NCBI GenBank assembly: GCA_965226885.1 | Contig: CBDDEL010000015.1 | Location: forward strand, 224,001-288,000 | Direction of reading: 5' to 3' | Source: Opitutales bacterium | Lineage (GTDB): Bacteria; Verrucomicrobiota; Verrucomicrobiia; Opitutales; UBA2987 | DNA: 64,000 nt | In this document: positions 22,932-48,994 of the stretch, piece after piece | Layout of the letters: the number at the start of each line of letters is the position of its first letter | Numbering within the stretch: position 1 is the first letter of the stretch | The notes under the pieces: model-generated | What the model was told of the DNA's origin: nothing | What the model saw: the letters and a program-made list of their open reading frames with translations, nothing else | Databases searched by the model: none | Position numbers and translations under genes: made by a program

Positions 22932-24485
22932 TTACTTGGGTTGTGGATAGCGGAGAAGGACGGGGATATCGCTCAGTCGGCTGACCAGACGAAAAGTCCC
23001 GCTACGCGTATCGCGATACAAATAGGGCGCCCAGTATCCGATGTCCTCCCGGCGCCACCATTGGCCCGTTTCTTTTTTCTCCGAAAGGATTGTAAAAGAA
23101 TACCTGTACAATTTAAACCGAATGATTTGCGGTGGAGATTCCGGGAATGGATTGTGGGCGAACAACGCCGTAACGTCGGCTTCTCCCTCAATCAGCCTGG
23201 CCCCGGCCAAAAGAACGAACCGGTGCCGCTCATTGCCATAGACGCCTAACTGGGCAAACCAGAGATTCCAATCGAAACGCGGCAGGTGCGGCGCCATGAA
23301 ACGCGGCGCGATGCCGGTATCCTGGGCCTGCCATTTGAAGCGGTAAGTTTTCCAACTCAAGCCCCCGTCATTGGAACCCTCATATTCAATATGGTGGCGG
23401 TGGTGAGTCATACTGCCGAAAAGAGCGTAGCGATTGGCCGATCGAAAATTTCCCAGCAAAACCAGCGGCTGCCGGGTAAAGGCGGGAAGGGAATTGACCG
23501 GAACCCGCATGACGGCCAGAAAAATGTATAAGCCGATATAAAAAAAGGGGAGCAGCACAACGGAAGCGGTAACTTTTCGCCACCAGGCAGCGGCAGCCGG
23601 TGAAACGCCGGTTTTCCTTTCAGGCAAAAAAGGCAAGATTTTTCGAATCGCCCTGTCGTCCAAAAGCAGCATTGCCAGGGCAATGGAATTGTAATTGAGA
23701 AATGTATAATTGCCGGTCAGGAGAATTCCGAGGTTCATTCCGCCCCACAACAAACACAACAAGATGCGCCCCTTGCGCCCGAGGAAAAATAAAAATGGAC
23801 CTACCACTTCGACATAGAGAGTGGCCCCCGTCATGCCGGAATGAACCCAATCGGGAAGGTGCTGGGCATACCAGCCCAGCCAGGTCGGGAAAGGACAGTT
23901 CACATAGTAATCTTGAAGGGCGGAAAAGGTTTTCCAGGCCTCGTCGCCCCCCATGCTCTTGGCTATCCCCGGCTCAAAAATCAAACGAAAGCAGAGCCAC
24001 CAGAACAACAGCCTGACCACCACTGAGGACGGCGTCCGCTCCCCCAAACCTGGCCGCAGTCCTCGCGGTGCCAAGAAAACGGCCAGGAGGACCGTCTCCA
24101 GCATGAGACCATCGGATTGGAATCCAGAGAAATTGCGCGCCGCCGAGACAAATGATAGATAAAAAATCCAACAGAATACGAGGGCGGCGCGAGGCCACGC
24201 ATTCAATAGGAGCAATAACCCGGCAATCATGCCGCCATAGCAAATGAGGTTGAGCCCGGCAGCGCCTGCGTCGCACCACAATAAGGTTGGCGCCGACAGG
24301 AAGGCCTTCCACGAGGGCATTTGGCTGGCCAGGGCATTCAGGTAATCCTCTGCCGGCAGAATACCGCGCGGCCCGATGAGCCCGTATATCTGGGTGGAAA
24401 GCGAGAGGAAGGAAGCCAGAAAGCCAATCCCCAGAATTCGTAGAAAAATCCAGCGAGACCAAAAAAAGGTCTCATCCTTGCCCAT
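22932..24485 (-). CDS. Lipase maturation factor (LMF1)-family membrane protein
   Basis: GLIGPRGILPA, F.GFQSDGLMLE, TGNYTFLN, N.Y.LF..MT and APHLPRFDWNLWFA motifs. ATG overlaps the sulfotransferase stop (TGATG). Confidence 0.9.
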   Translation of the reverse strand: MGKDETFFWSRWIFLRILGIGFLASFLSLSTQIYGLIGPRGILPAEDYLNALASQMPSWKAFLSAPTLLWCDAGAAGLNLICYGGMIAGLLLLLNAWPRAALVFCWIFYLSFVSAARNFSGFQSDGLMLETVLLAVFLAPRGLRPGLGERTPSSVVVRLLFWWLCFRLIFEPGIAKSMGGDEAWKTFSALQDYYVNCPFPTWLGWYAQHLPDWVHSGMTGATLYVEVVGPFLFFLGRKGRILLCLLWGGMNLGILLTGNYTFLNYNSIALAMLLLDDRAIRKILPFLPERKTGVSPAAAAWWRKVTASVVLLPFFYIGLYIFLAVMRVPVNSLPAFTRQPLVLLGNFRSANRYALFGSMTHHRHHIEYEGSNDGGLSWKTYRFKWQAQDTGIAPRFMAPHLPRFDWNLWFAQLGVYGNERHRFVLLAGARLIEGEADVTALFAHNPFPESPPQIIRFKLYRYSFTILSEKKETGQWWRREDIGYWAPYLYRDTRSGTFRLVSRLSDIPVLLRYPQPK

Positions 24486-25594
24486 CAACAAATAGATATT
24501 TCGGCAGGAATATTGTAGTTCCAATAATCGAGGGCGAAACCCCATTGATCTTTTATTCTTTCCACTTGGCGTGGCGTCAAGCGATAGACGTTGCGGCGGT
24601 AGTTTCTCTGTCCATGGATATAAGCCTCTATCCCCTTGAAGGCTTCCCGGCGCTCGGAAAGTCCATGGAAATCATATATTTTCTCGATCTCCCGCATTGG
24701 ATTCCGCTCGATTTCCTCATAGCTTACTTCGATCAGGTCCTCCGCCGGTAGTGTGGGTAGTTCCTGCAAATACCGTTCCATGAGAAGACGGTAATTTTCG
24801 AGGGTGATGGTTTCAAAATCGAGATGCTCGTAAGTCTGCCAAGCGAAGGCGGGCATGGTTTGCTCGTAATGCTTCACAGTGGAACAAAAGACATTGTAGG
24901 GGTTGCGAACTATATGAATGAAGCGGGCGTTGGGGAAAACGGTTTTCAGCCACCGGGCGCGGGTGGTGGAAGCGGGATTCTTGAGCAAGAGCCGTTTCCC
25001 CTCATTGGCCAGCGTCAGTTTCCGCAACAGGTAGAGGTAAGCGCTCGCAAAACGCTCCAGTTCACCTTCCTCCAATCCGTCGAGCAGAACCGAGCGGCGG
25101 TAGTGCTGTTGTAATTTTTCCGGAAAATAATAACAATTGTAGTAGCACAGCGGGTTCATATTGCCCAACGCCATCTCCTCTTCCTGGGGCGAGTCCAGGG
25201 TTAGGGAAACGTTATCCATGCCGCGCGTTTCCGGCAAGATCCTTTCGATTATGGGTGGAGCGATTTTCAATTTACCCAAAAAATCCAGCGGCATGGCTGT
25301 CTGCAGAAAGGAAATCCAGGCAAACTGGGGGTCGCGGCTTAAAAGGTTGTGCAAATGGGTGGTTCCGCTGCGCCAATGCCCCAGTATGAAGATGGGTTCT
25401 TTTTCCAGCACCGTGGCATTGATGCGGGAACGATAAAGCAAATGCTCAATCTGGTAAAATGAGAATCGGGCCATAATGGCTAGTAGCCCGATGGCTTGCG
25501 GGAGTAGCGCGGGCCCCTGAAATGCGCGGTGTTCCCGCAGGAGTTCCAGATAGGTCGTAAGATTGCTTCCGGCGAGCGGGTGCAAGAGTCTCAT
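24485..25594 (-). CDS. PAPS-dependent sulfotransferase
   Basis: 5'-PSB loop PIFILGHWRSGTTHLHNLL, LLKNP, 3'-PB FIHIVRNP....S, and V.YE. Confidence 0.92.
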   Translation of the reverse strand: MRLLHPLAGSNLTTYLELLREHRAFQGPALLPQAIGLLAIMARFSFYQIEHLLYRSRINATVLEKEPIFILGHWRSGTTHLHNLLSRDPQFAWISFLQTAMPLDFLGKLKIAPPIIERILPETRGMDNVSLTLDSPQEEEMALGNMNPLCYYNCYYFPEKLQQHYRRSVLLDGLEEGELERFASAYLYLLRKLTLANEGKRLLLKNPASTTRARWLKTVFPNARFIHIVRNPYNVFCSTVKHYEQTMPAFAWQTYEHLDFETITLENYRLLMERYLQELPTLPAEDLIEVSYEEIERNPMREIEKIYDFHGLSERREAFKGIEAYIHGQRNYRRNVYRLTPRQVERIKDQWGFALDYWNYNIPAEISIC

Positions 25595-25624
25595 GCCACT
25601 AGCCCGATGAAGGAGGGGTAATAG

Positions 25625-28600
25625 TTATACCCCATGCAGGGGATCGCTTATGGTCGGGTCGGAGGATGTCGTTTCTTTAAAACGCTCTATGGACTCCGGC
25701 GAGATGAAATAACCCTCACATTGAGGCCGGGCCGATTCGAGGTCCAGAGTATGCAGCAATTTGTAGTGGGCCAGAGAGTCTTCCAATTTGACCGGGCCAA
25801 GGGTAGGCCGGATGTCCGGCTTGCGCCCAGTGAGAAGGCTGGATAAAATACAACCGGTCATCTCACGAGGATCCCTCCCCACCAGGCTTAACAATCGGTT
25901 GCCTCCCAGTTCCTCGATTCTTTCGACCGCGCCGCTGGGCAGAAAAATGGTTTCTTTCACTTCTTTCTGCAGGCGGATGAGGCCACCGGTGGTAAAGAGT
26001 ATGTCGTGCTCGGATTCGATTCGCTGAATGGCGTCGAGGGTGTGGAAGCAGGGAGGAAAGGAATCGTCCACGATAAGCGTTCCGGGCCGCAGGCGGTTGA
26101 CGTCAAGGATGCCGGGAACATTGGTCGCTCCTAGAATAAAGGAGGCCCTGTAAACAGCATCCGGCAATCGGCCGCGGGTCGGTTCCAGCTTGATTTTGCC
26201 ATCGAAACCCAATTCCTCCACCAACTTGCGGCGGATGCCTTCAAGGGAGTCGATTTTCTGGTAAAGATCGCACAGGATGAATTCCTTGGGGTGAGGCAGC
26301 ACTTCGAGCATCAGCCGCATGGTTGCATAGCCGATGGATCCCAGCCCGACAATTGCCACAGATTCCTCCTCCAGGCTGCGTTCGGCCAGTGTCAACAATC
26401 CCTCCATGGATTTGATAATGGTGGCAGTTGTTGTGGCGTGCCCTGTTGTAATGATGGGCAGATCGGTACGGCCGTCGATTAAATCGGTCACTTGCAACCC
26501 GTAGTTGGTGGCCGAGGGGATCAGACCGGTCAGGGACACTTTCTTTGCCCCCATGTTCTTGGCGATTTCCAGCGATTGCATGATTTGATCGCCCAGAAGA
26601 GTCTGGTTTTTATAAAGCTCGGAACCGAGCCGAGGCAGCATGACAAGCCCGATGCGGCCATAGGGAGTTTCATAAATATTGCTGATAAAGGACCTGTCGT
26701 GCAGCCAGTTATGGGCAATATCGTCTTTGCTCAATCCGGTCAGGGGAAGAAAGGCGTCGGGTATATAAGCGAGGGCGACGGCATCAACCTGGGGCAATGA
26801 ATCGCGGTCGCCGTTAAAGCCTTCGACCACCTCCAGATTGAGGTATTCGGAATTGGCAATCTCTTCGGCCATATTATCCATATAACTGCCGTTGCCGTTG
26901 AAAGCGGAACCGGCGGCGATTTCACGATCATCTGGAATGGTGTCGAGATAACGGGCCAGGTACTCGACGGTGGGGTTGCGCAAGAATACTTCGACTGGAA
27001 ATTGCCGGTTAAAAACCTGCGAGATTTCGGTCAGCAACTGCAGGGCAAGCAGTGAATCACCTCCCAAATCGAAGAAATTGTCAGTGATGCCGACCTCTTC
27101 GCTGGAAAATGCCTTGTTGAGGATATCGACCAAGATTTTTTCGGTCGGAGTTTGCGGAGCGGTATATGCGGCCTGCAACTCGACTCTAACGATTTGCGGG
27201 GCGGGCAGGGCCAGGCGGTCGATCTTCTTGTTCGCGGTAAGGGGAAAATTGTCCAGCAGGACATAAGCGGCCGGACGCATGTAATCGGGCAACAGTTCCG
27301 TGAGATGGCTGCGCAGCTCGGAGGTCAAGCCCTCGGATGGGTCGTTGGCAATGATGTAGGCGACCAAACTGTCGCCGCCCGGCATATCGCCTCTTTTGAC
27401 GACCACTGCTTGGTCCACCTTGCTATGGGAACGCAGGTGTGTCTCGATATCCTCCAGTTCGATGCGATACCCGCGCAATTTGATCTGGGTGTCGCCGCGC
27501 CCCAGAAAATCGATTTTTCCATCGGGCAGGAAGCGGGCTAAATCTCCCGTCTGGTAAACGCGTTCCTTTTTGCCATTGGGCAGTTGCAGTTCGATAAATT
27601 TTTCCGCCGTCAAATCGGGCTGGTTGTGATAACCGCGAGCCAGCCCATTGCCGCCAATATAGAGGTTGCCCGTGAAGCCGGGCGGCAGGGCGTTGTGATT
27701 GTCGTCCAGAATGTAAATCGTGGTGTTGGCGATGGGCCGGCCAATGGGCACGCTACCGGGCTGCGAATCCACCTTATCGACGGTGGACCAGATGGTCGTT
27801 TCAGTCGGCCCGTAGAGGTTCCATACGGCACGGGTGCTGGGTAGCAGGGACTCTGCCAACTCGCGGGGCAAAGCCTCCCCGCCGCAGAATACGCGCAGGT
27901 CGTGCTTGCCGTTCCAACCGGAGTCCAAAAGCATCTGCCAAGTGGCCGGCGTGGCCTGCATGGTGGTGACCGCATATTCCTCCAGAAGCATGGAGAGGCG
28001 GCGGCCATCGGTGGCCTCCTCCCGCGTGGCGATAACGACCTGCGCTTCGGCCACGAGGGGTAAAAAGAGTTCTAGTACCGAAATGTCGAAAGAGAGGGTG
28101 GTGACGGCCAAAAGCGTGTCATCGGTAATCAGGCCGGGGGTTTCCCGCATGGAGGAAAGGAAGTTGACGACAGCGCGATGGGGAATTTCGACCCCTTTCG
28201 GTTGGCCGGTGGAACCCGAAGTATAAATGATATAAGCGAGCGAATCTGGGGAATTGGCGACAACCGGGCCTTTTCTGGCGGCACCCGTATTTTCCACCGC
28301 AAGGAGGCTCCATCCACCCTCCGGAAGGCTCTCCTGGAGATGGCCTTGGGTAACCACAACGGACGGATTGGCGTCTTCCAGCATTTGCCGGATGCGGTGC
28401 TGGGGAAAGGCTGGGTCGAGCGGCACATAACAACCGCCGGCCTTGAGGATGCCCAAGGCGGCGATCAGCATTTCGACGGATCGGTCCACGTACAAGCCCA
28501 CCGGGCAGTCCACATCGATTCCCTGCGAGCGCAATTTCAGGGCCAGGCCGTTGGCCCTGCGGTTGAGTTCGCCATAGGTGAGCGATTTGCCCGCGCTGGT

Positions 28601-31600
28601 TACGGCCGTGCGGTTGGGATTGTGTTCGGCGTGTTCCGTCACCAATTGGTGCAGGCATTTGTCCTCGGGGTATTCCAGTTCGGTATGATTCCATTCCTCG
28701 AGGATAATCTTTTCTTCGTCTCGAGACAAAAATGAAAGCTCGGAAATTTTCTTTTCCGGGTGCACCACCACTTCTTCCAGGATTTGCTTGTATAGCCCGT
28801 TCAGGCGGTCGATGGTGGCCGGCTCGAAGAGGTCGCGGTTGTACTGCCAGCAGCCATAGATATGCCCGCCAGCTTCTTCCACCACGAGGGAAATTTCAAA
28901 CTGGGCCTGGCGCAGGTTCAAATCAATCGATTCCACAGATATATCGCCGACTTTAAAGTTGTGCCCACCTTGTCCGATGAGGAATACGGCGATGCCTTGC
29001 TCGTCCACGCCGGGAATTCGTTCCATAGAAAAAGTTACCTGAAAAATGGGCGAGCGGCTTGGGTCCCGTTTAACTTTGAGAGCATCGACCAAATGGGAAA
29101 CGGGATGCTCCTGGTGCTCTATGGCGGCAACCACCGAATCGCTCATCTGGTTGAGGTATTCGTTAAAGGATGGGTCGTCCACTACCCTGCTGCGAATCGG
29201 AACCGGGTTGATGAAAAAGCCCACCACTTCATGAAATTCCTTTAAGCGGCGACCGGCGAAGGGGCTTCCCACAATCAAGTCGTCCTGGTTGCAATAGCGG
29301 TGTAGGAGCACTTGAAAGGCCGAGAGTAGAGTGGTGTAGAGAGTGACATTGTTCGATTTGGCCAGAGTATCCACCCTCCGCGAGAGGCGGTCATCCAGCT
29401 TGAACCCGTGAGTGGAGCCATTGAAAGACTGCACCGGCGGACGGGCATGGTCGGTAGGCAGATCGAGAACCAGAGGAGCCCCCTGCATCTGGTCCTTCCA
29501 ATACCTGAGCAATTTCTCCTTTTGGGGGCCCTTGAGAAGCGTTTGCTGCCAGTTCACGTAATCCGAATAACGATAGGGCAATTCCTCTAATTTGTGGGTG
29601 AGTCCCGATTTGAGAGCAAAATAACTTTCCATCAGGTCTTGCATGAGGAGCGCCACGCTCCAGGCATCGGAAACAATGTGGTGCATGGAGAGCAAGGTGA
29701 TGTGGGATTGATCGGCGGTGCGAAAGAGTTCCAGCCTGATCACGGGGCCCTTCTTCAAATCGAAGGGCTGGTTGGCGTGCTCGACCAGAAGCTCCTTGAT
29801 TTTTTCTTTGCTCAGGTGCGTGGTATCGTGCTCCCGAAAATCGATGGTCCGGTTTTTACGCAGGGTCTGCAGCGGCTGCCCGGTTTCATCGGAAAAAGTG
29901 ACGTCGAGCATCGGGTGCCGTTGAAAAAGAGCGGCAAAAGCCCTTTTCATGACCGAAATATCGACATAAGGGGTAATCTTGGAGCTGAAAATCAGGTTGT
30001 AAGCCGGACTGTGGGGGGCCAGTCGATTGAGGAACCAGAGGGCGCGCTGCCCCTCCGACAATGAAAAGACCGTCTCTTCCTCTTCCGACCGCTCCACGGT
30101 AGGCATCCCTGAGGATTCGGAGGTCTCGGTTTCATTTGTGGAATCTTCGCCCGCTTTTTGCAAAATGAGTTCTAGCACGGGAGTGGCCAGTTCGATGATA
30201 TTGGGGCCTTGCAGGAATTGCCCCATGGGCAGGTTGATACCCAGGTTGGTTTCCAGCCGGTTCATCAACTCGATGGCCATAAGTGAATCCAGCCCGATCT
30301 GGGTGAGGGGCGTATCGCGATCGATTTGGGCAGCGGTGGTGCCGAATACTTGTGCCACCTGTTCGCAAATATAATCGGCCACCATGGGCAAACGCTCGGC
30401 AGGGGTGGCAGCGATGACTTTGGGCCGGAAAGAATAGGCATCGCCGTAGGCTGAGTCGGCCTTTTTCTCCTTGTTCACCATTTTGGCATAAGTGAGCGAA
30501 CTTGCCGTTGCCGGATTGAGCCGGGCCAAACCCGTCCAATTAATCCTCGAGGCACCCAATTGAGCGGAGTTCTTGGGCAATACGCGGGCAAAAATGCTGA
30601 GGGCTTCACTGGGGGTAAAGCTTTCCAGGCCAAGCTTATCCAGATATTTGGCCACTTTTTCGTTGCGCGCGACATAACCGGCTTCGGAAAGGGCGCCCCA
30701 ATTCATGGCCAGAGCTGGCAGGCCGAGAGCTTTCCGATAGTTGGCGATAGCATCGAGAAAGAAATTGGCGGAAGCGTAATTTCCCTGTCCTGATCCACCA
30801 ATCATGGAGGATGCGGAGGAGAACAGGATAAAATGTTCGAGCGCCAAATCGAGGGTCAGGGTGTGTAAATTCCAGGCCCCGATCATTTTGGGTTCGAGGA
30901 CTTTGTTGAAGCGCTCCGGAGTCAATTGGATGATCCAGTCGTCATCCAGAACCATTGCCCCGTGGATGAGCCCGCGCAATGGCGGCATATCCGTTTCGAT
31001 TAGTTTGAGCACCCGGGCGATGTCTTCCTGGCGGGTCACATCGGCACTGACCACCTCTACTCTGACACCTTTGGCCTGCAATTCCGCAATGGTATCCCGG
31101 GCCAGGTCTGTGCTGGCCCCGCTGCGGCCCATGAGAACCAGGTTTTGCGCTCCGTATTCCACCATCCAGCGGGCCACTTCGAGGCAGAAACCGCCCAAAC
31201 CGCCAGTTATCAGGTAGGTGGCGTCGCCCCGGAACAGCCGGTCAGCCTGCAGGGACGGTCTCACTGGAATGGATTCCACTTGCATGGAGAGTACGTTTTT
31301 CCCGATATGTTTGGCCTGGGCCATATAGCGGAAGGCTTTTTCCGTCTCGCAAATGGAAAACGATTTCAAGGGCAACGGCCGCAGCTTCTTTTCATTAAAT
31401 AATTCGGCCAGTTCCGACAGCATCGAGGTAATAAAGTAGGGCCGATCTTTAAGAAATGAGGCTAGATCGATGGCGAAATAGGAGATATTGTCCTTGAAGG
31501 GTTCCAGGCCAATCTTGGTATTGGAATAAATGTCGATTTTACCAATTTCCAAAAACCTTCCATAGGGCGCCAGTACGGAAAAACTGCGTTGAATGAAATC

Positions 31601-34600
31601 GCCCGCCAACTGGTTGAGGACCACGTCCACCCCCCGGCCTTCCGTAACCTCCAGAATTTCATCGGCAAAGTTAAGTGTGCGTGAATCGAATACATGCTCG
31701 ACCCCCTGGGAGCGAAGCAGATCGCGCTTTTGATCATTTCCCGCCGTGGCAAAGACTTCCGCCCCAACTTGTTGGGCGATTTGAATGGCCGCCTGGCCCA
31801 CTCCACCCGCTCCGGCATGAATGAGGATCATTTCGCCGGGCTGAAGCCGGGCCAGATGATTGAGGGCATAATGCGAGGTTAGGAAAACCACTGGCAGGGT
31901 GGCGGCCTCCTCAAAAGACAGGTGCTTTGGTTTGGAAAATATCAGCGCCTCATTGACGGTGGTGTAGGCACGGCAGCAATAGGGAGCCATTCCCACCACC
32001 TCGTCGCCGATTTTGAAGCGTTTGACGCCCTCGCCCACCGCCACGACCTTGCCAGTACATTCGTCGCCCAGCCACTTGAGGTCTTCACTTTGCCCCGGGT
32101 ACATGCCCAGAGCTTTCATCACATCGCGGAAATTCATGCCCACCGCGGCAACCTCGATTTCGATCTCTCCGCTCCCGGGGGTATTGCGACGCGTTTCCCT
32201 CAAGCAAAGGTTGCTGAGCACACCCGGGGTTGGTATTTCCAGCCGGTAGGGTAAAATTTCGTGGCCGTTTACGGCCTCTTTCAAGAGCTCGGGAAGTTCC
32301 TCCGGGGTGGGATTGGTCAAGCGGTTGCCATAACGCACCTGGCCCCTGTGCAGGGTCTCGAGTTCCTTGTCCTCCGAGCAGATTTCCTGGAAAACGATTC
32401 TCGCCCATTCCTTCGGCAGCGACGGATCGAGGTCGATCCCGGTCCAGGCAAATTCCTGCTGCTCATTGTTGGCAACTCTGGCAAATCCGAATAACGGGGT
32501 CGATGCGATGGAGGTGATTTCACCCATTGGGCCAAAAGATTGGGCGCCCTGGGTAATTAGCCAAACTCTCGGCTTTTCAGAAAATTCCTGGGCTGCCAGC
32601 GCCTGGCCAAGGTTCATTGCGCTGATGCAGCCGGTTTTTTGGGCTTCCCGCAGGGACTCGGCGGTGATCTCGGCGGAAGATGGATGATCGAGACTCCACA
32701 AATGAACCACACCGCGTAATCCTTTGGTGGCAACATCCATGGCCTCCATGATCTGGCGCATGTCATCGCCCGCATCGGGCCGAATGGTAAATTTTTGATC
32801 GTTTTGGCGGGCATAGGAATCGCCCGCGTAAACCAGGGCGCAGGGGCAACCGTTTCTTTCCAGCTTGCCGGCGATGGCTTCGCCAACTCCGCCGGAGTCG
32901 GCCATTATCAGCCAGGGTCCCTCCTTGCCGGAGAGCCGTTGGGCAGAGATTTCCTCCACCCGGTCGACCGTAATCTCCGGAACTTGCGCCAGAAAAACCG
33001 CTTGCTGCGCTTCTTCCTCGTCCATGCAATTGATGACCGATTTAACCTGGCAAAACCCGCTCTCCGATAATAAATCGCTCCACTTTTGCCGGGAAAGGAG
33101 GGCGCATTCTGGCCGAAGATCGGTATCCTCGTAATGCCACCAGCCTTTCATCAAACCGAAAACCTGGTCGAGTGAACGCAGGGATTTGGTCACTTCGAGG
33201 AACATCAAGAAGCCCCCGGAGGCCAGGCAGCGGCGCACATTGTGCAGGGTGCGCTTTAAGTCAACGGTGGCATGGAGGACGTTGGTGGCCAACACCAAGT
33301 CATAGGAATGAGGTTCGATCCCCTGGGTTGCGGGATCTTTTTCGATATCCAGAACAGTATAATCAACAAAATCATATTCTGTAAATTTCTGCCTGGCCTG
33401 AGAGGGGAATACCGGAGTGATGTCGGTAAAGGTGTATTGCGTTTTATCGGCCGGTAGAACAGGCAGGATCATCTCGGTCAAAGAACCGGTGCCTGCGCCG
33501 ATTTCCAGAATGCGGATTTTGCTGTTTTGCGGCAGCTTGGCCATGATGGCGGAAACTGATTTCTGGAGCAGTTCATTATAAGCGAGAAAATCCGCATCCT
33601 CTTTGTAAAAAGTTTCCAGCAAGGCAGCCGACTGGGGGGAAAAAATCAGTTGGAGCGGGTCCAGGCGGCCAGCCAGAACATCCGCCAGGTTGGCCCCGCA
33701 TTTCTTGAACAATGGAATCTGGGCATAAAAATCGGGGTACTGTTTGGCCAACGCATCGGCTGATTTTGCCGAATCGGGAGTATCCGGAATGATCCCTATT
33801 TCCCATTGGTCTCCCGGCAATGGCAGGAGGGCCCCTTCCTCGCTCAAAGCCTGCAAGAAGGCGTGCATCAGCCGGTCGTGCGTCTGCACGACCCCTAGGC
33901 TTTCCATGAGCCCTTCAACCGTTACCACATCACCCTTTTGCGGTTTCCAACCCAACTGAAGGAAACTATTTATGATCTGATAATAGCTCAATTTTTCCAG
34001 GGCGGGGAGGAACTCGCGGGCGTGTTTTCCTAATTGATATTGCTCGTAGAGCGGCTCGATTTCGGATTGGATGGTTTCGTAAACTTCATCCGGGCTGACT
34101 ATGGCGTGGGCGCCTTGGCGGATCGCGCTGCCCTGCAATCGGGACGGTTCCCATTTGAACTCATAGAGGCAGCTATCGAGGTCGTTTTCCTTTCTGGCCT
34201 CGCTTTGCTCCACACGCTGGCAGCGGAAGCCTTTGATCTCTGCGATCCGTATGCCCTTTTGGTCGTAAACCTGTATGTCAGAGGTTAAATCCTTGCCATT
34301 ATCGAAAAGAATATGGGCGTGGCTCCATATGCGCTGCTCAGGTTTGCGGAACAACCGGATGCGGTCCAATCCGACGGGCAGGTAAAAATTATCGGTGATA
34401 TCGCGATCATCTGGTAATTCCTGAGCCCGGCTGACACACTGAAAACAGGCGTCCAGCACAGCTGGATGGAAGAAATAGTCGTCTGAATTTTCAAAGATGA
34501 CATCGGGAATTTCAATCTCGCCGAGAGATTCTCCTGGGATTCTCCAGACATTCTGCAGGAGGGAAAAACAAACTCCGAACTGATAGCCAGCCTTGACCAT

Positions 34601-37600
34601 ATCTTCGTAAATAAGTTGGTGGCCAAATTTTTCCACCAATCGGGAACGAATTTTGCCCAAATCCGTTTTAAACTCTTTCTGCGGTGAAAGTTTTTGCAGA
34701 CGTCCCTGAGCATTTTGCTCCCAGATCAGAGTTGTTGCGCTTTCATCGGAACTATTGATTTCGAAGGAGGATTCTTTAGCGTCGCAGACAAATTGCAGGT
34801 TCCTGGAACTGTTGGATGCAAGAAAGAGCGCTTTCTCGAATTTGATGTCCTCAATCGAATAGGGTGTCTCGGCAAATAATTCATTGCCCGCGGCCAAGCC
34901 CATCTCGACATAGGCGGAAGCCGGGTAAACCAGCGAATCCCGCAAACGGTGGTCGTCCAGATAAGGATAGGCGGGAGGATAAAGAACGCATTTCCATGTC
35001 GGGTTGGGATCGCGCTGGCGAAGCCCTAAAAGGGGATGGGATTCCTCCTCCATGCGGTAGTCGAACGATTCACCGGATTCCAGCCAGAAGCGCTCGTGTT
35101 GCCAGGGATAGGTGGGCAGGCGGACATATTGGCCGTCTTTTCCATTCAATGTCTCCCAGTCGATGGGCAATCCAATGTTATATAGAGCGCCGAGCGAGTG
35201 CAACATTCTTTCCTGCTCCGGCTCTTTTCGGACTAGTGAGGGAAGAACGTAGCCTTTGGTTCCCACTTTGGCCATGCATTCCTGAATTGAGCTGGCCAGG
35301 GCCGGATGAGGGCCAAGTTCCAGAAATATCTTTTCCCCCTCCTCAATAATACCGCTGATGGCCGGACTAAAAAGGACGGTATTGCGAACATTCTGCCACC
35401 AATAGCCGGCATCCAATGAGGTTCCCTCCAGCAGCCCGCCGGTGACTGTGGATATAAAAGGAAGATTGCCCGCATGAGGTTCGATATCCGCCAGGGATTC
35501 CCTCAATTCCTCCACGATGGGATCCATCTGATGGGTATGGAAAGCGTAATCGATGCGCAACCAGCGTATGAATACCTGCTCCTTTTCAAGGGGCGCGATC
35601 ATGTTTTCGAGAATTTCGGTATCCCCTGCCATGGTAACCATGCTGGGGCTGTTGACCACCGCCACGGCGACCTGGTCTTCAAATCCGCTGATGACTTCGG
35701 CAGCCTTTTCCTGGGAAAGACCCACCCCCACCATGCGGCCTTTGCCTCCGGTTGTATTTTGCAGACGGCTGCGATGATAAATGATTTTTACGGCGTCTTC
35801 CAGGGTGTAAATTCCGGCCCAATAAGCGGCCGCTACCTCTCCCACGCTATGACCGATAATCTGCCCCGGCTCAATCCCTCGCGAGCGCCAAAGCTCGGCC
35901 AGGCCCACCTGCAAGGCAAAAATCGCAGGCTGGGCGATATCCGTGCGATTGATATTGGAATCCGCTTCCGGCTTGCACATCTCCTCCAGCAGCGACCAAT
36001 TGCCGAGCTTTTGTATCAAGATATCGATTTTTTTCAGGGTCCGGCGAAAAACAGGCTCTGTTTTGATTAATTCCTGGCCCATGCCCCACCATTGCGGGCC
36101 CTGGCCGGTAAAAACGAAGACTATCTGCGGTATTTCCGGGGAGGCCCGCCCGATTTCAATTCCGGCCACTTCCTTTTCCCCCGCGCTCCATGCCTTTAAC
36201 CGGGCGGTAATTTCATCCATGCTGGAACCGATTACGGCCAGCCGGTGTTCGTGATGGTTTTTGCGCAATGAAGCGGTGTGGATGACATCGCCCAGATTGA
36301 GGGCGGTCTCCTTCGCCTCCTGATGGTCCGAAAGAAAATCGGCCATCCCCTTAACTACTGCTTTGAGGGAATCGTCCGTATTGCCGGACAAAGGCAGCAA
36401 AACCGGTTGCTTCCGCCTTCTTTTCCGTTTCGCTCCGCCGTCGTGTTGGAGCGCTTCCGCCGGCCGTTCGGACAGAACGATATGAGCATTGGTGCCGCCA
36501 AAACCGAATGAGTTGACAGCGGCCACAGCGGGCTCTTCGGTTTCGGGCAATGGCTCCGCCTCCAGCGGCACCCTCAGGTGCAGCTCCTCGAAGGGAATGT
36601 TGGGGTTGGGAGTCTCAAAATTCAAATTGGGGGGAATGATCCGGTGGTGGAGAACCAATGCGGCCTTGATCAGCCCGGCCACGCCGGAACCTGATTCGAG
36701 ATGGCCGACATTGGTTTTGACGGAACCGATAACACAAAAGTCGTTTTCCGCCCGGCCGCGGCTAAGGACATTGCCCAAGGCCCGCACTTCGATGGGGTCG
36801 CCCACCGGCGTGCCGGTTCCATGAGCTTCCATGTAATTAACCCGGCTGGGAGAGATGCCGGCTTGCTCATAGGCCTCCTCAAGCATCTGCGACTGCGATT
36901 CCAGACCCGGCACCGTCATGGCATTGGTACGCCCGTCCTGGTTGATGACGGTGGCATGAATTACGGCATAGACCGGATCCTTTTCCGCCAAGGCCCGCGA
37001 TAGGGGTTTGATGACGAGCATGCCGGCGCCTTCACCGCGTACGTAGCCATTGGCGCGGGCGTCGAAGGCGAAACATTTGCCGCTCGGCGAAAGCATGGAT
37101 GCCTTGCTGAAACCGATGAACGCATCGGGCATCAGAAGGGCGTTGACGCCGCCCGCCAGGGCAGTGTCGCACTGCCCGTCCCATAAACTGCGGCAGGCCA
37201 GGTTGACGGCCACCAGGGCGGAGGAGCAAGCCGTGTCCACCGATATACTGGGCCCCTTGAAATTGAAAAGGTAGGAAATACGGTTGGAAGCAATGCTCAG
37301 AGTGCTGCCGCTATTGGTGTGCACATCCACATCGGCGGGGCTTTTCATCTGAATATTGGCGTAATCGTTGCTGGCGATTCCGACAAATACCCCGGTACGA
37401 GTGCCGGACAGTTTTTCGGGCGGCTGCCCACCGTCTTCGAGGGCTTCCCAGGCAACCTCCAGGAGCCACCTTTGCTGGGGGTCCATGCGAAGCGCTTCGC
37501 GCGGGGATATTCCAAAAAAACGGGCGTCGAACATTTCGACATTGTCGATAAATCCGCCCCACCGGGTGATCATTTTGCCTGGAATCTGCGGATTGGGATC

Positions 37601-37759
37601 ATAATAACGATCGACATTCCAGCGGTCCTCGGGAACGACCCGGATGGCATCCTTGCCAGCCATTAAATTATTCCAGAATGTCGTCGGATGGTTGGCCCCG
37701 CCGGGCAGCCGGCAGCCAATACCGATGATGGCCAGGGGTTCTTTCCCTTTGCCCGTCAT
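25625..37759 (-). CDS. Hybrid highly reducing PKS-NRPS: KS-AT-DH-cMT-ER-KR-ACP-C-A-T plus acyl-ACP-reductase-like terminal domain
   Basis: KS DTACSS/HGTGT/GHLE; AT GHSVG, YAFH; DH HxxxDxxxxP, DACFQ; MT LEIGAGTG, NVLH; ER IHAGAGGVG; KR TGGLGG, LDD, YASAN; ACP GLDSL; C HHIVSD; A YTSGSTGQPKG, YGPTE; T GGDSL; tail TTGHATT, VGLGSIG, GCILSSLL. Confidence 0.96.
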   Translation of the reverse strand: MTGKGKEPLAIIGIGCRLPGGANHPTTFWNNLMAGKDAIRVVPEDRWNVDRYYDPNPQIPGKMITRWGGFIDNVEMFDARFFGISPREALRMDPQQRWLLEVAWEALEDGGQPPEKLSGTRTGVFVGIASNDYANIQMKSPADVDVHTNSGSTLSIASNRISYLFNFKGPSISVDTACSSALVAVNLACRSLWDGQCDTALAGGVNALLMPDAFIGFSKASMLSPSGKCFAFDARANGYVRGEGAGMLVIKPLSRALAEKDPVYAVIHATVINQDGRTNAMTVPGLESQSQMLEEAYEQAGISPSRVNYMEAHGTGTPVGDPIEVRALGNVLSRGRAENDFCVIGSVKTNVGHLESGSGVAGLIKAALVLHHRIIPPNLNFETPNPNIPFEELHLRVPLEAEPLPETEEPAVAAVNSFGFGGTNAHIVLSERPAEALQHDGGAKRKRRRKQPVLLPLSGNTDDSLKAVVKGMADFLSDHQEAKETALNLGDVIHTASLRKNHHEHRLAVIGSSMDEITARLKAWSAGEKEVAGIEIGRASPEIPQIVFVFTGQGPQWWGMGQELIKTEPVFRRTLKKIDILIQKLGNWSLLEEMCKPEADSNINRTDIAQPAIFALQVGLAELWRSRGIEPGQIIGHSVGEVAAAYWAGIYTLEDAVKIIYHRSRLQNTTGGKGRMVGVGLSQEKAAEVISGFEDQVAVAVVNSPSMVTMAGDTEILENMIAPLEKEQVFIRWLRIDYAFHTHQMDPIVEELRESLADIEPHAGNLPFISTVTGGLLEGTSLDAGYWWQNVRNTVLFSPAISGIIEEGEKIFLELGPHPALASSIQECMAKVGTKGYVLPSLVRKEPEQERMLHSLGALYNIGLPIDWETLNGKDGQYVRLPTYPWQHERFWLESGESFDYRMEEESHPLLGLRQRDPNPTWKCVLYPPAYPYLDDHRLRDSLVYPASAYVEMGLAAGNELFAETPYSIEDIKFEKALFLASNSSRNLQFVCDAKESSFEINSSDESATTLIWEQNAQGRLQKLSPQKEFKTDLGKIRSRLVEKFGHQLIYEDMVKAGYQFGVCFSLLQNVWRIPGESLGEIEIPDVIFENSDDYFFHPAVLDACFQCVSRAQELPDDRDITDNFYLPVGLDRIRLFRKPEQRIWSHAHILFDNGKDLTSDIQVYDQKGIRIAEIKGFRCQRVEQSEARKENDLDSCLYEFKWEPSRLQGSAIRQGAHAIVSPDEVYETIQSEIEPLYEQYQLGKHAREFLPALEKLSYYQIINSFLQLGWKPQKGDVVTVEGLMESLGVVQTHDRLMHAFLQALSEEGALLPLPGDQWEIGIIPDTPDSAKSADALAKQYPDFYAQIPLFKKCGANLADVLAGRLDPLQLIFSPQSAALLETFYKEDADFLAYNELLQKSVSAIMAKLPQNSKIRILEIGAGTGSLTEMILPVLPADKTQYTFTDITPVFPSQARQKFTEYDFVDYTVLDIEKDPATQGIEPHSYDLVLATNVLHATVDLKRTLHNVRRCLASGGFLMFLEVTKSLRSLDQVFGLMKGWWHYEDTDLRPECALLSRQKWSDLLSESGFCQVKSVINCMDEEEAQQAVFLAQVPEITVDRVEEISAQRLSGKEGPWLIMADSGGVGEAIAGKLERNGCPCALVYAGDSYARQNDQKFTIRPDAGDDMRQIMEAMDVATKGLRGVVHLWSLDHPSSAEITAESLREAQKTGCISAMNLGQALAAQEFSEKPRVWLITQGAQSFGPMGEITSIASTPLFGFARVANNEQQEFAWTGIDLDPSLPKEWARIVFQEICSEDKELETLHRGQVRYGNRLTNPTPEELPELLKEAVNGHEILPYRLEIPTPGVLSNLCLRETRRNTPGSGEIEIEVAAVGMNFRDVMKALGMYPGQSEDLKWLGDECTGKVVAVGEGVKRFKIGDEVVGMAPYCCRAYTTVNEALIFSKPKHLSFEEAATLPVVFLTSHYALNHLARLQPGEMILIHAGAGGVGQAAIQIAQQVGAEVFATAGNDQKRDLLRSQGVEHVFDSRTLNFADEILEVTEGRGVDVVLNQLAGDFIQRSFSVLAPYGRFLEIGKIDIYSNTKIGLEPFKDNISYFAIDLASFLKDRPYFITSMLSELAELFNEKKLRPLPLKSFSICETEKAFRYMAQAKHIGKNVLSMQVESIPVRPSLQADRLFRGDATYLITGGLGGFCLEVARWMVEYGAQNLVLMGRSGASTDLARDTIAELQAKGVRVEVVSADVTRQEDIARVLKLIETDMPPLRGLIHGAMVLDDDWIIQLTPERFNKVLEPKMIGAWNLHTLTLDLALEHFILFSSASSMIGGSGQGNYASANFFLDAIANYRKALGLPALAMNWGALSEAGYVARNEKVAKYLDKLGLESFTPSEALSIFARVLPKNSAQLGASRINWTGLARLNPATASSLTYAKMVNKEKKADSAYGDAYSFRPKVIAATPAERLPMVADYICEQVAQVFGTTAAQIDRDTPLTQIGLDSLMAIELMNRLETNLGINLPMGQFLQGPNIIELATPVLELILQKAGEDSTNETETSESSGMPTVERSEEEETVFSLSEGQRALWFLNRLAPHSPAYNLIFSSKITPYVDISVMKRAFAALFQRHPMLDVTFSDETGQPLQTLRKNRTIDFREHDTTHLSKEKIKELLVEHANQPFDLKKGPVIRLELFRTADQSHITLLSMHHIVSDAWSVALLMQDLMESYFALKSGLTHKLEELPYRYSDYVNWQQTLLKGPQKEKLLRYWKDQMQGAPLVLDLPTDHARPPVQSFNGSTHGFKLDDRLSRRVDTLAKSNNVTLYTTLLSAFQVLLHRYCNQDDLIVGSPFAGRRLKEFHEVVGFFINPVPIRSRVVDDPSFNEYLNQMSDSVVAAIEHQEHPVSHLVDALKVKRDPSRSPIFQVTFSMERIPGVDEQGIAVFLIGQGGHNFKVGDISVESIDLNLRQAQFEISLVVEEAGGHIYGCWQYNRDLFEPATIDRLNGLYKQILEEVVVHPEKKISELSFLSRDEEKIILEEWNHTELEYPEDKCLHQLVTEHAEHNPNRTAVTSAGKSLTYGELNRRANGLALKLRSQGIDVDCPVGLYVDRSVEMLIAALGILKAGGCYVPLDPAFPQHRIRQMLEDANPSVVVTQGHLQESLPEGGWSLLAVENTGAARKGPVVANSPDSLAYIIYTSGSTGQPKGVEIPHRAVVNFLSSMRETPGLITDDTLLAVTTLSFDISVLELFLPLVAEAQVVIATREEATDGRRLSMLLEEYAVTTMQATPATWQMLLDSGWNGKHDLRVFCGGEALPRELAESLLPSTRAVWNLYGPTETTIWSTVDKVDSQPGSVPIGRPIANTTIYILDDNHNALPPGFTGNLYIGGNGLARGYHNQPDLTAEKFIELQLPNGKKERVYQTGDLARFLPDGKIDFLGRGDTQIKLRGYRIELEDIETHLRSHSKVDQAVVVKRGDMPGGDSLVAYIIANDPSEGLTSELRSHLTELLPDYMRPAAYVLLDNFPLTANKKIDRLALPAPQIVRVELQAAYTAPQTPTEKILVDILNKAFSSEEVGITDNFFDLGGDSLLALQLLTEISQVFNRQFPVEVFLRNPTVEYLARYLDTIPDDREIAAGSAFNGNGSYMDNMAEEIANSEYLNLEVVEGFNGDRDSLPQVDAVALAYIPDAFLPLTGLSKDDIAHNWLHDRSFISNIYETPYGRIGLVMLPRLGSELYKNQTLLGDQIMQSLEIAKNMGAKKVSLTGLIPSATNYGLQVTDLIDGRTDLPIITTGHATTTATIIKSMEGLLTLAERSLEEESVAIVGLGSIGYATMRLMLEVLPHPKEFILCDLYQKIDSLEGIRRKLVEELGFDGKIKLEPTRGRLPDAVYRASFILGATNVPGILDVNRLRPGTLIVDDSFPPCFHTLDAIQRIESEHDILFTTGGLIRLQKEVKETIFLPSGAVERIEELGGNRLLSLVGRDPREMTGCILSSLLTGRKPDIRPTLGPVKLEDSLAHYKLLHTLDLESARPQCEGYFISPESIERFKETTSSDPTISDPLHGV

Positions 37760-37972
37760 ACGGATGCCCTCCGCCGTTGTTGGCCGCTCGGGGTAATCGA
37801 GGCAAGCCCTTTCCGGAAAGAAAATTTGTGTTCAATCAAGTCAATCATACCGTGATAAGGGGATATCTTAATGAATAAGGCCATAAGCAATGTCTAGCCA
37901 AAACATGGGACTAAAAATAGAGGTTCGGGGTCGTTCAAATGATGCAAAATATTCGTTGGGAAAGTCCCTCGG

Positions 37973-38010
37973 CTTTGTCAAGAGCGCTGTTCTTTGTCAA
38001 GAGCGCTGTT
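37973..38010. repeat. 19-bp tandem duplication CTTTGTCAAGAGCGCTGTT x2
   Basis: Read directly; lies upstream of the PKS-NRPS. Confidence 0.95.
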
Positions 38011-38378
38011 CTGGGAAAAAGGATAATATTTTTGCCGTTTCCGGCGGGTGCAGCTGCTAAACGGATAATCTGAAAGGATCATATTTGTGTGTTGGCAGAT
38101 ATTCCGGGTTTCGTTTAAGAAAGGTTTGGAGAGCGAATAATTCTTTGTTGAAAATCGTAAGGAACCCGGACAAATTCCCTGAATACTTGCATATCATAGA
38201 GTTGAAGAATAGTACCGATGGCCCCTTTGTCAATTATTTCGTTGCCCCTGAACGCATAGGTGCCATACCGATTGTTGGTCTCATTTGGCGTTTGTTTCCA
38301 TTTCGATATTTGATCGCTGGCCGCTAATTTATACCCAAACCCTCACTTTTCTCTCTAAGGAATGGGCCTCAATTTTAT

Positions 38379-38395
38379 AGCAAAAAACGTGCCCA
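38379..38395 (-). promoter_or_regulatory. Putative sigma54 (-24/-12) promoter facing the PKS-NRPS
   Basis: Minus strand TGGGCACGTTTTTTGCT: GG-N10-GC with GGCACG and TTGCT half-sites. Confidence 0.5.
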
Positions 38396-38502
38396 TAAGT
38401 GGAATTGAAGAAGAAATTGGGGCCTGTAGGGCCGGATTCCGTTGTTGACCGCCCAGATGCGATTCCGTAACGAATTAAATAACATCCAGTATCCCCAGCG
38501 CC

Positions 38503-41500
38503 ATGAAATTAACCGAGATCGCCATTAAAGAAAACCGTTTGACCCTGACGCTGGCCGTTTTCGTCGTTCTCGGCGGGTTGATAGCCTTGTTTAACCTGCC
38601 AAGGTCCGAAGATCCCAAAATTCCTTTCCGATTCGCCCTTGTGACCACTATTTACCCCGGCGCTTCAGCCGAGCGAATGGAAAACCTGGTCTCCAGAAAA
38701 ATCGAGGAAGCGGTCAAAGAGGTGCCTGAAGTCGAATTCGTCAACAGTCTTTCCCGCCGCAACGCTTCGGGGGTCCTCATAAAGCTGAAGGATGATTACA
38801 AAGACTTGCGACCCATTTGGGATCGCTTGCGGAGGAAGATCGAGCGGGTAGGCAATGACTTTCCCGACGGTGTCAGGGGGCCATTTTTTAACGATGAATA
38901 TGGCGAGGTATTCGGCATCATAGTTACTATCTCCAGTCGAAATCTTCATTACCGTGAGATCAAGAATGCGATCGATGCCTTGCACCAGCGATTGCTCGGG
39001 CTTTCACAGGTATCCAAGGTGATCGAGCTTGGCCAACGGGAGGAACGGATCACCATTACCTACGACGATGCGGAGATGGCCGAGGCCGGGCTTTCCCCCT
39101 TCCATTTCAAATCCTACCTGGAGGCGCAAAACGTTATCGCTCCGGGTGGCGGCCTCCTGGAAGGCCGCAAACGCATCGCGACCGAACCGGCCAGCGATTT
39201 GGAAAACCTGTCAGACATCGAGAACCTCTATGTGGCTTTCCCAGAAGACGAAGACGCCTTTAGCCTGGGCGAACTAGTGGATGTCACCAGCGGATTCAAA
39301 GACCCTCCCGACAGCTTGTTGCGATCTTCAGGAGTTCCCGCCATCGGTCTTGGGATTTCCCTGCGGGAAGGAGGAAACATTGAAAAGCTGGGTCGCCAGG
39401 TTCAGATGGCGGTGGACGATTTTTCCAGTTCTACCATCGAAGGATTGCAATTCGACTACGTGGCCTTCGAGCCGGAACGGGTAAAAAAGCGGATCAACAG
39501 GTTCTTCATCAATCTTCTGCAAAGCCTGCTCATTGTGGGAATCATTCTCATGGTCACCCTGGGGCTGCGCACTGGCTCGGTCGTAGCCAGCATGATGCCG
39601 CTGGCAGTTCTGGCCGCCCTCTGCGTAATGCTCGCCGTCGGCCTCAATATCAACCTGGTGGCGCTTGCCGCATTTATCGTCGTGCTGGGCATCATGGTGG
39701 ACACCCATATCGTAATTTCGGAACGCATCATGGTCCTGCGGGGGCAAGGCATGTCCGCCCTGGACGCCGCCACCACCACGACAAGCGAGCTTTATCCCCC
39801 CTTGCTGACGGCCACCTTTACCACCGTAGCGGGATTTTTGCCCATCTATGTGGCCAATTCGACTGGCGGCGAATACGTCACGCCCCTCTTCACGATTGTT
39901 ATGATCACCTTGTTTTGCTCGACGTTTTTCGCCTTCACCATTACGCCGGCGCTCTCCATCAAATTCTTCAAGGTAAACCCGGACGGCCATAAACCGCTCA
40001 CCGAAAAGCCCATTTACAAGGTTTACCATAAAATACTTTTGTTTCTGCTGCCGCGGCCCTTTCTTGTCCTGACAACCCTCGCGGTAGTGTTTTCATTATC
40101 GATCTACGGTTTTCGATTTATTCCCACTATATTTTTTCCTGCTTCAGACAGACCCATATTTACGGTCGATCTCGAATTTCCAGCCGGAACGGTCATTGAG
40201 CAGACCGAGCAGGCTGCCGCCAAAATCGATCAATTTGTCCGGGAAAACCTGCTCGTTGAGCAAAATGACGGAGTGGGCATCACCAATTGGGTATCCTTCA
40301 TCGGCCGCAATGCCCCGCGTTTCATTCTCAATCATCGAACGCGCGAGTATAATCCCGAATACGCCTACTTTATTTTCAATATCACCTCCACGGATGATTT
40401 TACCTGGCTGCGGTCGAAGCTGGACGCGTTTTGCGCAGAAAACATGGCGGACGGCCAATACCGCATCCGCCGCATCGAGGCGGGCCCGGCCGTCGGTTTT
40501 CCCATCCGGGTCCATATTTCCGGCGAAAATCAGGAGGGCATGTTCGCTATCGCGGAGGAAATCCAGGAGGAAATGGGAAAACTGCCGGGGGTCTTCAACA
40601 TCAACAATAATTGGGGCGCTCCCATCAAAAAATATCGCGTCGTTATCGAAGAGGAGGCCGCCGGGCTGGCCGGGGTAACGCATGGCGAAATCGCCATGGC
40701 CTTGCAAACCTACCTGACGGGCATACCGGTCACTGAAATCCAACAGGGAAAAGACAGCATCCCCATCATCATTCAATCGTCGGTGCAAGGCGCCGATGCA
40801 TTGGAAAAAATCAACGCCCTCCAGGTTTACTCAAGTATCTACAAACGATCGGTGCCGCTGAATGAGGTGGCCGCCATGGTCGAAGTTTATGAATCGGCCA
40901 ACATCATGCGGCGGGAATTCCGGCGCACCGTCACGGTCAGGGCGGATGTCGAGCCGGGCCTCAATCCGAAAAAAGTAGACCGCGCCCTGGAAAAATTCAT
41001 GGAGCAAAAAAAACCGCAATGGGCCGATGCATTTTATGTTCGGCTGGGGGGCGAAGGTACCGAATCGGCCAAGGCCAACCTTTCCATCCTCAAAAACGTC
41101 CACTGGGCATTCTTTATCATTCTGCTCCTTCTGGTTAAGCAAACCCGCTCCTTTCGCCGCTCCTTCATTATAATGAGCGCGGTGCCCATGGGCATCATCG
41201 GGGTGGTCTTCGGGCTTTTGGTCACCCGCCAGCCATTTGGATTCACCACCCTGATCGGCATCGTCTCCTTGACCGGCATCGTGGTGAACAACGCCATCAT
41301 CCTGATCGACCGCATTCGCATCAACACGGGGAAAGGTGAATTATGCGCCCAGGAGTGCATTGTGGAAGCCGCCCTCGACCGAATGCGCCCCATCCTCTTA
41401 ACCACCATAACCACCGTGGGCGGGATTATGCCCCTTTATCTGAGGGGAAACCCAACCTGGCAAGGCATGGCCGTGGCCATCATTTTCGGCCTCCTTTTCG

Positions 41501-48915: not shown

Positions 48916-48994
<79 letters not shown>

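Follow-up and report, generated by a model that had tools for sequence, protein, structure and literature searches.

A 64,000-nucleotide stretch of an Opitutales genome (positions 224,001 to 288,000 of contig CBDDEL010000015.1; hereafter the window) encodes on its minus strand a single-module polyketide synthase fused to one nonribosomal peptide synthetase module (PKS-NRPS), and around this synthase we propose a conserved lipid-biosynthesis module shared by a few Opitutales families. Its product would be an acyl-glycine lipid—released by a candidate terminal amidation domain (TAD), sulfated, probably glycosylated, and exported—and we place the probability of this reading at about 0.5. An earlier note on the same DNA had described positions 22932 to 37759 as an operon of synthase, sulfotransferase, and LMF-family membrane protein genes. 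The system reaches past those coordinates to position 41595, taking in a resistance-nodulation-division (RND) permease gene that lies just outside them, and further includes an unlinked gene for a GT21-like glycosyltransferase; both genes had been missed.

Three minus-strand open reading frames (ORFs) make up the stretch first described: the synthase (25625..37759; 4044 aa), the sulfotransferase (ST; 24485..25594; 369 aa), and the LMF-family protein (22932..24545). Thirty nucleotides separate the synthase stop from the ATG of the ST gene, whose own stop codon overlaps the following start as TGATG. That ATG corresponds to residue 21 of the longest LMF frame, a reasonable start because relatives align from about residue 24. 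The co-oriented arrangement set out in the earlier note is borne out by these ORF coordinates and junction letters, as is, by profile searches of the window, its statement that no other PKS gene lies there. Genome-wide, the 5.48-Mb assembly holds six KS matches, of which the synthase alone (1/6) lies in a multidomain frame; an APS kinase and a phosphopantetheinyl transferase are encoded in the same genome. For distribution, we searched 201 genomes of the same order, the window's genome included, with the TAD, along with a wider sample of 400 further genomes drawn from the phylum. The synthase occurs in 16/201 genomes of the order—all eight sampled from the window's own family and all those sampled from three others—and a TAD-bearing synthase in none of the 400 (0/400).

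Every domain of the synthase from KS to T has a Pfam match above cut-off and keeps its active-site motifs in an alignment of 13 sequences, namely the window protein and its intact orthologues (4030-4074 aa) in 12 other genomes. Left out were G097 and G104, whose frames are split, and G155, whose copy is cut by a contig end. In order along the protein, the KS domain (36470..37741, residues 7-430; ketoacyl-synt and Ketoacyl-synt_C) has invariant Cys/His/His motifs; the AT domain (35189..36121, residues 547-857; Acyl_transf_1) has GHSxG in 12/13 orthologues; the DH domain (34196..35038, residues 908-1188; PKS_DH_N and PS-DH) has an invariant active-site His and Gly; and the cMT domain (33053..33574, residues 1396-1569; Methyltransf_12/23/25) has a largely invariant SAM motif I. 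There follow the ER domain (31283..32239, residues ~1841-2159; ADH_N and ADH_zinc_N, and TIGR02824), with invariant GGVGQ; the KR domain (30686..31222, residues 2180-2358; KR, E 1e-64), with an LDD-type motif in 10/13 orthologues and LHD in 3/13; and the ACP (30185..30376, residues 2462-2525; PP-binding), with an invariant serine motif. The NRPS part comprises a C domain (28703..30076, residues 2562-3019; Condensation, E 1e-105) with HHxxxD in 13/13 orthologues, an A domain with predicted glycine specificity (27224..28639, residues 3041-3512; matched in Pfam), and a T domain, or peptidyl carrier protein (PCP; 26945..27151, residues ~3537-3605), whose PP-binding halves were recovered in two sub-queries and whose serine motif is conserved. 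The nucleotide motif of KR and the core motifs of the A domain are likewise retained. All of these domains lie on the minus strand, and the order KS-AT-DH-cMT-ER-KR-ACP-C-A-T is the one given in the earlier note.

The same order had been likened to that of fungal iterative highly reducing (HR) PKS-NRPS enzymes. The likeness holds for domain order; the KS-AT sequence is of the bacterial cis-AT/mycocerosic acid synthase (MAS) type, scoring 661-795 bits against 7zma, PikA, CurL, and MAS and ~520 bits against PsoA/LovB. Because the KS-AT is nearer to bacterial than to fungal enzymes, the fungal domain order is an architectural resemblance and not a sign of kinship. The best NCBIfam match of the PKS part is Pks2, at 1356 bits against an equivalog cut-off of 2400. 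The AT specificity motif reads Y/F-A-F-H across the 13-sequence alignment; we take its Phe to signify malonyl specificity, and any methyl branches would therefore come from the cMT domain.

As for the amino acid, the evidence points to glycine. Ten Stachelhaus-equivalent columns, placed by eye against the PheA numbering, read DILQFGLIWK in 6/13 sequences, DILQLGLIWK in 4/13, and an I-to-V variant in 3/13; the pocket had previously been read as DILQFGLIWK, and the same columns give this reading in the alignment. We follow the earlier note in taking DILQLGLIWK as a glycine code; a full-text literature search for this string and for its first eight letters found nothing. The closest solved A domain is that of LgrA residues 1229-1713 (654 bits), followed by a match at 447 bits and, in third place, by the start of DhbF chain 5u89 (residues 28-520; 415 bits); the first, valine-type A domain of LgrA reaches 329 bits only. 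Both the LgrA 1229-1713 domain and the DhbF 5u89 domain presumably activate glycine. The earlier proposal of glycine as substrate is supported by the LgrA match together with the four orthologues that carry the exact code, and activation of glycine by this A domain is a well-supported prediction from sequence.

C-terminal to the T domain lies a further domain of ~400 aa that the first description overlooked (25661..26860, minus strand, residues ~3634-4033). Pfam assigns no family to the ~430 aa after T, and NAD_binding_4, Epimerase, and adh_short give no hit with E of 1 or less in the C-terminal 471 residues; there is therefore no reductase (R) domain of the short-chain dehydrogenase/reductase (SDR) type. 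Sequence matches in the PDB are instead to 9e4s (E 2.7e-87) and 9e4x (E 1e-86), and weakly to the N-terminal part of PigE (4ppm; E 1.7e-5). An AlphaFold2 model of the domain, built on 36 homologues, has a predicted local distance difference test score of 89. VIA-align superposes this model on the entry entitled "TAD from Carmabin Biosynthetic Pathway" with Z 52, a root-mean-square deviation of 2.0 over ~380 residues, and 40% identity, and on a cyanobacterial acyl-ACP reductase (AAR) with Z 29. The cysteine at residue 3970, equivalent to CarI Cys2238, and the GxGxxG Rossmann glycines are invariant in the 36 homologues and in the 13 orthologues alike. By sequence match and modeled fold, the synthase is predicted to end in a TAD, a release domain of the NAD(H) type with an AAR-like fold, and not in a classical R domain.

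A literature search for "terminal amidation domain" returned the preprint of Rankin et al. alone. There the domain is named a putative terminal amidation domain on account of the primary amides that terminate carmabin, vatiamides E/F, and hectoramide B; NAD(H) is bound beside an invariant cysteine within reach of the PCP arm; the nitrogen source of the amidation is described as unknown, with a route via an aldehyde also considered; and a sequence similarity network of TADs falls into five clusters that are 24-42% identical to each other (Rankin et al., 10.1101/2024.10.28.620694). Going by PDB entry titles and abstracts, AAR and PigE/TamH are thioester reductases. The reductive release suggested in the earlier note finds no SDR-type R domain to perform it, and gains from the superfamily to which the release domain belongs, with its thioester reductases AAR and PigE/TamH. 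For the window synthase we consider that reductive release falls just short of an even chance and that release as an amide has a smaller, still substantial one; release by something else is unlikely. A lipid-type glycosyltransferase in the system favors a product with a free hydroxyl, which either reductive release or a hydroxyl retained on the chain would supply.

The amide has to be taken seriously as an end product in its own right. A carmabin-like line would yield a fatty acyl-glycinamide, with the ST sulfonating either the nitrogen of the amide or a hydroxyl that the acyl chain retains, and with the GT21 gene unrelated to the pathway. All three TAD-ending assembly lines with known products give terminal primary amides (10.1101/2024.10.28.620694), and the domain in the window shares with the carmabin TAD its fold, its cysteine, and the 40% identity given above. 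Amidation by a TAD has, however, never been demonstrated in vitro according to the same text, and the low identity between the network clusters means that their chemistry may differ (10.1101/2024.10.28.620694). The adjacency of the GT21 gene to the RND, ST, or PKS gene in six genomes, moreover, argues for a hydroxyl that can be glycosylated. We hold this reading of the product to be possible but doubtful.

The partner most tightly bound to the synthase is the ST, a 369-aa PAPS-type enzyme on the minus strand (PAPS, 3'-phosphoadenosine-5'-phosphosulfate; Pfam Sulfotransfer_3, 118.8 bits against a cut-off of 27). Across 27 sequences its PAPS-loop residues, G72 to T79, vary little or not at all. 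The gene stands directly 3' of the synthase in 15/16 genomes, which supports the functional link between the two that had been suggested; in the exception, G057, it lies 510 kb away. Orthologues of at least 51% identity are confined to the 16 synthase genomes, and 11 other genomes have relatives at 32-37%. Adjacency of ST and PKS genes recurs in other lineages, at L014, L027, L041, and L042. A complex prediction for the ST with the T-TAD didomain scored 0.21 against a mark of 0.32, which is no evidence either way.

Does the sulfate stay on the product? In the CurM/OLS olefin synthases sulfate is a leaving group, and an analogous elimination, or the dehydration of an amide to a nitrile, would leave the end product of the window synthase unsulfated. 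The ST domains of CurM and OLS are among the few PDB matches of the ST (E 0.0017 and 0.015), and the ST gene sits directly after the release domain. Against this, the similarity to the CurM domain is marginal and two uncharacterised 384-414-aa proteins are nearer, there is no thioesterase (TE) or decarboxylase partner, and a dedicated RND pump suits an amphiphilic end product; we rate sulfate as a leaving group as highly improbable. The two nearer proteins we take to be mycobacterial Stf-type enzymes.

The ST context survey, which covered 80 ST loci from other genomes, brought to light arrangements of a different kind. Two Akkermansia-like metagenome-assembled genomes (MAGs) have an ST homologue at 44-45% identity directly upstream of lpxB, the gene for lipid-A disaccharide synthase (L011:11134-12270 and L017:11113-12279). 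At L023, L025, L030, L033, L039, L043, L045, L051, L052, and L055, an ST homologue (33-38%) is followed by an SDR of the NAD-dependent epimerase/3-beta-HSD type. Many of these ST-SDR loci, in Alphaproteobacteria and some other lineages, have an unannotated protein of ~340-395 aa between the two genes, and the loci lie near MlaC, MMPL, Omp85, or squalene-hopene cyclase genes. They look like a separate, uncharacterised lipid-sulfation module.

On the other side of the synthase, and transcribed divergently from it, lies the gene for a 1030-aa RND permease (38503..41595, plus strand), which we propose as the product exporter. It matches Pfam ACR_tran at E 8e-135 and NCBIfam RND_permease_2 at 383 bits, below cut-off. 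All 16 synthase genomes, and none of the others (0/185), have orthologues of at least 52% identity; in those others the best matches reach at most 38%. The permease gene adjoins the synthase in 14/16 genomes and is on a separate contig in the other two. The divergent intergenic region (37760..38502, 743 bp) contains no ORF of at least 100 aa and no Rfam family. No fourth conserved gene of the kinds sought (membrane fusion protein (MFP), fatty acyl-AMP ligase (FAAL), or reductase) stands beside the RND gene; the GT21 gene does so, in one family only.

In that family (G060, G032, G083, and G104), the gene adjoining the RND gene encodes a 426-aa membrane glycosyltransferase. The protein scores 30.2 bits, just over the cut-off of 21.7, with Pfam Glyco_transf_21, to which ceramide glucosyltransferase and HpnI belong. 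At 52 bits, where the HpnI cut-off stands at 310, it does not qualify as an HpnI equivalog, and no relative of it was found in the PDB. Orthologues at 45-100% identity are present in 15/16 synthase genomes and in 0/185 others; the one synthase genome without the gene is G172, at 90% completeness. In G057, where the ST has left the synthase, it lies 105 bp upstream of the ST gene, and in G012 it is divergent from a second PKS gene (L128:1898-8290; 2130 aa; KS-AT-DH-ER-KR-ACP) that has no NRPS part. In an unrelated Verrucomicrobia MAG, L019, a 38%-identical GT21 homologue directly precedes an ST homologue, the sole such case among the 80 ST loci. In the window's genome the gene is unlinked, on contig C9, between P-type ATPase and transposase genes.

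Several side observations touch on these partners. Stand-alone PKS genes like that of G012 adjoin ST homologues in L027, L041, and L042. DDE transposase genes with the same Pfam hits and similar size occur 5 kb away from the RND end of the module (window 46593-48068; 491 aa) and, on contig C9, immediately next to the GT21 gene (L125:11033-12514; 493 aa). Insertion sequence (IS) copies such as these could explain the scattering of module genes.

How, then, might the module work? The PKS part would make a saturated, possibly methyl-branched acyl chain, either iteratively, as in MAS, or by a single extension of a fatty acyl primer. The sequence fits both options, with one multidomain PKS and neither a loading module nor a FAAL nearby. 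The C domain would then N-acylate glycine on the T domain, and the TAD would take the acyl-glycine onto its invariant cysteine and release it. Release would be either reductive, giving an aldehyde or alcohol in the manner of the related AAR and PigE, or would yield a primary amide, the outcome proposed for carmabin. The head group would be sulfated from PAPS and probably glycosylated by the GT21 enzyme, and the RND pump would move the resulting anionic lipid out of the inner membrane. A more specific version of this scheme is a sulfatide-like sulfoglycolipid on a "pseudo-ceramide" anchor: if the TAD acts as a reductase and gives an N-acyl-aminoalcohol, the GT21 enzyme would glycosylate the primary hydroxyl, the ST would sulfate the product, and the RND permease would place it in the outer membrane. 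We regard this version as unlikely.

Several points weigh against the sulfated, exported acyl-glycine lipid as a whole. For the TAD, the preprint reports no substrate release from the PCP under any condition tried, and the correlation it puts on record is with terminal amides only (10.1101/2024.10.28.620694). An amide terminus would leave no obvious hydroxyl for the glycosyltransferase or sulfotransferase unless the chain keeps one. The GT21-like gene is unlinked in 9/15 genomes that have it, that of the window included. No FAAL, loading enzyme, or partner of the MFP or outer membrane factor (OMF) type is conserved near the module. The synthase of G097 is split into two frames and that of G104 into three, through decay of the locus or through MAG error; the G097 frames are of 1692 and 2507 aa. 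Relatives of the ST at 33-45% identity are widespread without a PKS, beside LpxB, MlaC, MMPL, Omp85, and squalene-hopene cyclase genes, and the acceptor of the ST family is therefore not fixed. Finally, every sampled genome of four families has the module, so that the co-occurrence of RND, ST, and GT21 genes is fully confounded with kinship, and only repeated adjacencies in different arrangements count as independent evidence.

Some of these points feed a different explanation, in which the ST, RND, and GT21 proteins act on another envelope molecule, such as lipopolysaccharide or hopanoid-type lipids, and are mere neighbors or clade markers of a synthase that makes an unsulfated lipopeptide. 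The placing of ST relatives beside LpxB in the two Akkermansia-like MAGs, and near MlaC, MMPL, Omp85, and squalene-hopene cyclase genes in Alphaproteobacteria, would suit this explanation, as would LptF/G, 9 kb away within the window, and the confounding with kinship. It sits poorly with the tight adjacency of the genes across four families at 51-61% protein identity while surrounding genes differ, and with the recurrence of ST-PKS adjacency in the four other lineages named above. We consider it improbable, and return to a dedicated lipid pathway. The neighborhood of the module is syntenic (MiaB-like, SNF, and LptF/G genes), and the protein identities of module genes resemble those of their housekeeping neighbors. 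Steady presence in whole families and a syntenic neighborhood fit better with a vertically inherited envelope lipid than with a mobile or sporadic antibiotic.

The third gene of the original operon has a different history. The LMF1-family membrane protein (22932..24485, minus strand) is a genuine family member, with LMF1 at 136.3 bits and LMF1_C at 122.4 bits, both above cut-off. The earlier note made it a pathway member, proposing reductive release to an N-acyl-glycinal or N-acylethanolamine, O-sulfation, and handling by the LMF protein. In favor of that model, the TGATG overlap suggests co-translation of ST and LMF in this strain. Contigs from a second study also bridge the ST-LMF junction, and the adjacency is therefore not an assembly artefact. 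The structural relationship of the TAD to AAR and the PigE N-terminal domain, thioester reductases by titles and abstracts, speaks for its release step.

The comparative evidence runs the other way. Beside the ST, the LMF gene is intact in 1/16 genomes, that of the window, and present as a 5' fragment in 1/16 (G097); it was not found there in the other 14. In G097 (L087:8434-10284 and L107), homology ends inside the LMF gene and a DDE transposase gene follows, with an IS1-like gene beside it. DNA alignment with congeners places a clean indel at 22864-24497 between syntenic flanking genes. At the same site G051 has 98 bp, and G137 and G155 have an opposite-strand DUF2490 gene. Among 5.8 billion proteins the nearest LMF relative is 55% identical, against 95, 91, and 79% for relatives of the ST. 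No LMF gene occurs at the ST loci of other genomes (0/80), and the four metagenome loci with LMF relatives have no PKS, ST, or RND gene. A distant LMF paralogue (31-38%) lies elsewhere in 14/16 module genomes; that paralogue is the ancestral copy, and the LMF gene in the window is an extra one. The window's genome has its second LMF1-family gene at G000:C16:6746-8230 (35% identical to the window copy; 664-aa frame), and P0247, a close LMF relative, carries a fused PF04134 domain (DCC-type thiol-disulfide oxidoreductase). The conserved three-gene unit thus dissolves, with ST linked in 15/16 genomes and LMF intact in 1/16. The LMF gene is probably a recent, strain-level insertion at a variable spot, cargo and not a pathway gene, and the model that includes it we judge to be improbable.

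Other features of the window lie outside the module. Just past the LMF insertion are a PocR/AraC-type regulator gene and two small family-less ORFs (21091-21993, 20606-21052, and 22344-22688) that are found only in the genus. The SDR and GNAT genes at 41904-43378 were considered as pathway members and dropped, because they are conserved solely inside the genus. An Rfam scan of the 64-kb window returned tRNA-Val(GAC) at 48918-48994, tRNA-Ala(GGC) at 50166-50241, and nothing else, and a promoter/terminator scan of 22000-26000 gave counts at chance level.

The interest of the module extends beyond its own product. TADs are widespread release domains whose reaction has never been reconstituted, and the Opitutales module offers a simple test system, a single enzyme whose acyl-glycine substrate is predictable and whose tailoring partners are fixed. 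Should the product prove to be a sulfated lipid or glycolipid, Verrucomicrobia, a phylum that is abundant yet poorly represented in culture, would gain a new class of lipid. Should the pseudo-ceramide scheme prove correct, a sphingolipid-like envelope lipid would be reached by a convergent route of the thiotemplate kind, and a TAD clade would have its first assigned chemistry. The eye-catching LMF gene is incidental to the system.

The cluster was not recognised as a characterised one in the earlier note, and its orphan status holds in literature searches by title and abstract, where the combination of Verrucomicrobia or Opitutales with sulfotransferase and polyketide synthase found no published description of it. 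None of the known systems compared here combines a single reducing PKS module, a glycine module, a TAD, a separate ST, an RND pump, and a GT21 enzyme, although each shares part of the design. The mycobacterial sulfolipid-1 system consists of Pks2, a sulfotransferase, and an MmpL-type RND exporter. It resembles the window module in joining a MAS-like reducing PKS to a PAPS sulfotransferase and a lipid exporter of the RND superfamily; it differs in having no NRPS module or TAD, in carrying its sulfate on trehalose, and in an exporter that is MmpL-like, whereas the window RND protein is AcrB-like. Fungal iterative HR-PKS-NRPS enzymes such as PsoA (PDB 9x29) have the same domain order in one protein of ~4000 aa without a loading module. 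These fungal enzymes end in an SDR-type R or Dieckmann domain, and the window synthase stands apart from PsoA in its A domain, at only 184 bits, and in a KS-AT nearer to bacterial cis-AT/MAS enzymes. CurM/OLS lines likewise place a sulfotransferase at the end of a PKS line, but as a fused ST domain followed by a TE; the ST in the window belongs to another subfamily, stands as a 369-aa protein of its own, and is accompanied by no TE. For the release domain itself, the AAR and PigE/TamH reductase domains share the fold, and in them the cysteine accepts the acyl group that a carrier protein delivers; the window TAD is only ~16-17% identical to AAR, with a diverged N-terminal subdomain. The closest likeness in release is to the cyanobacterial TAD modules (CarI for carmabin, VatR for vatiamide, and HcaD for hectoramide; PDB 9e4s-9e56), where a ~400-aa AAR-like NAD(H)-type domain likewise follows the last T domain. 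As described in the available part of the source, which reports no partner ST, RND, or glycosyltransferase, those lines assemble peptides over several modules and end in N-methylated aromatic or aliphatic residues. The Opitutales synthase, by contrast, sets a single PKS module and a glycine module before its TAD, in a verrucomicrobial host.

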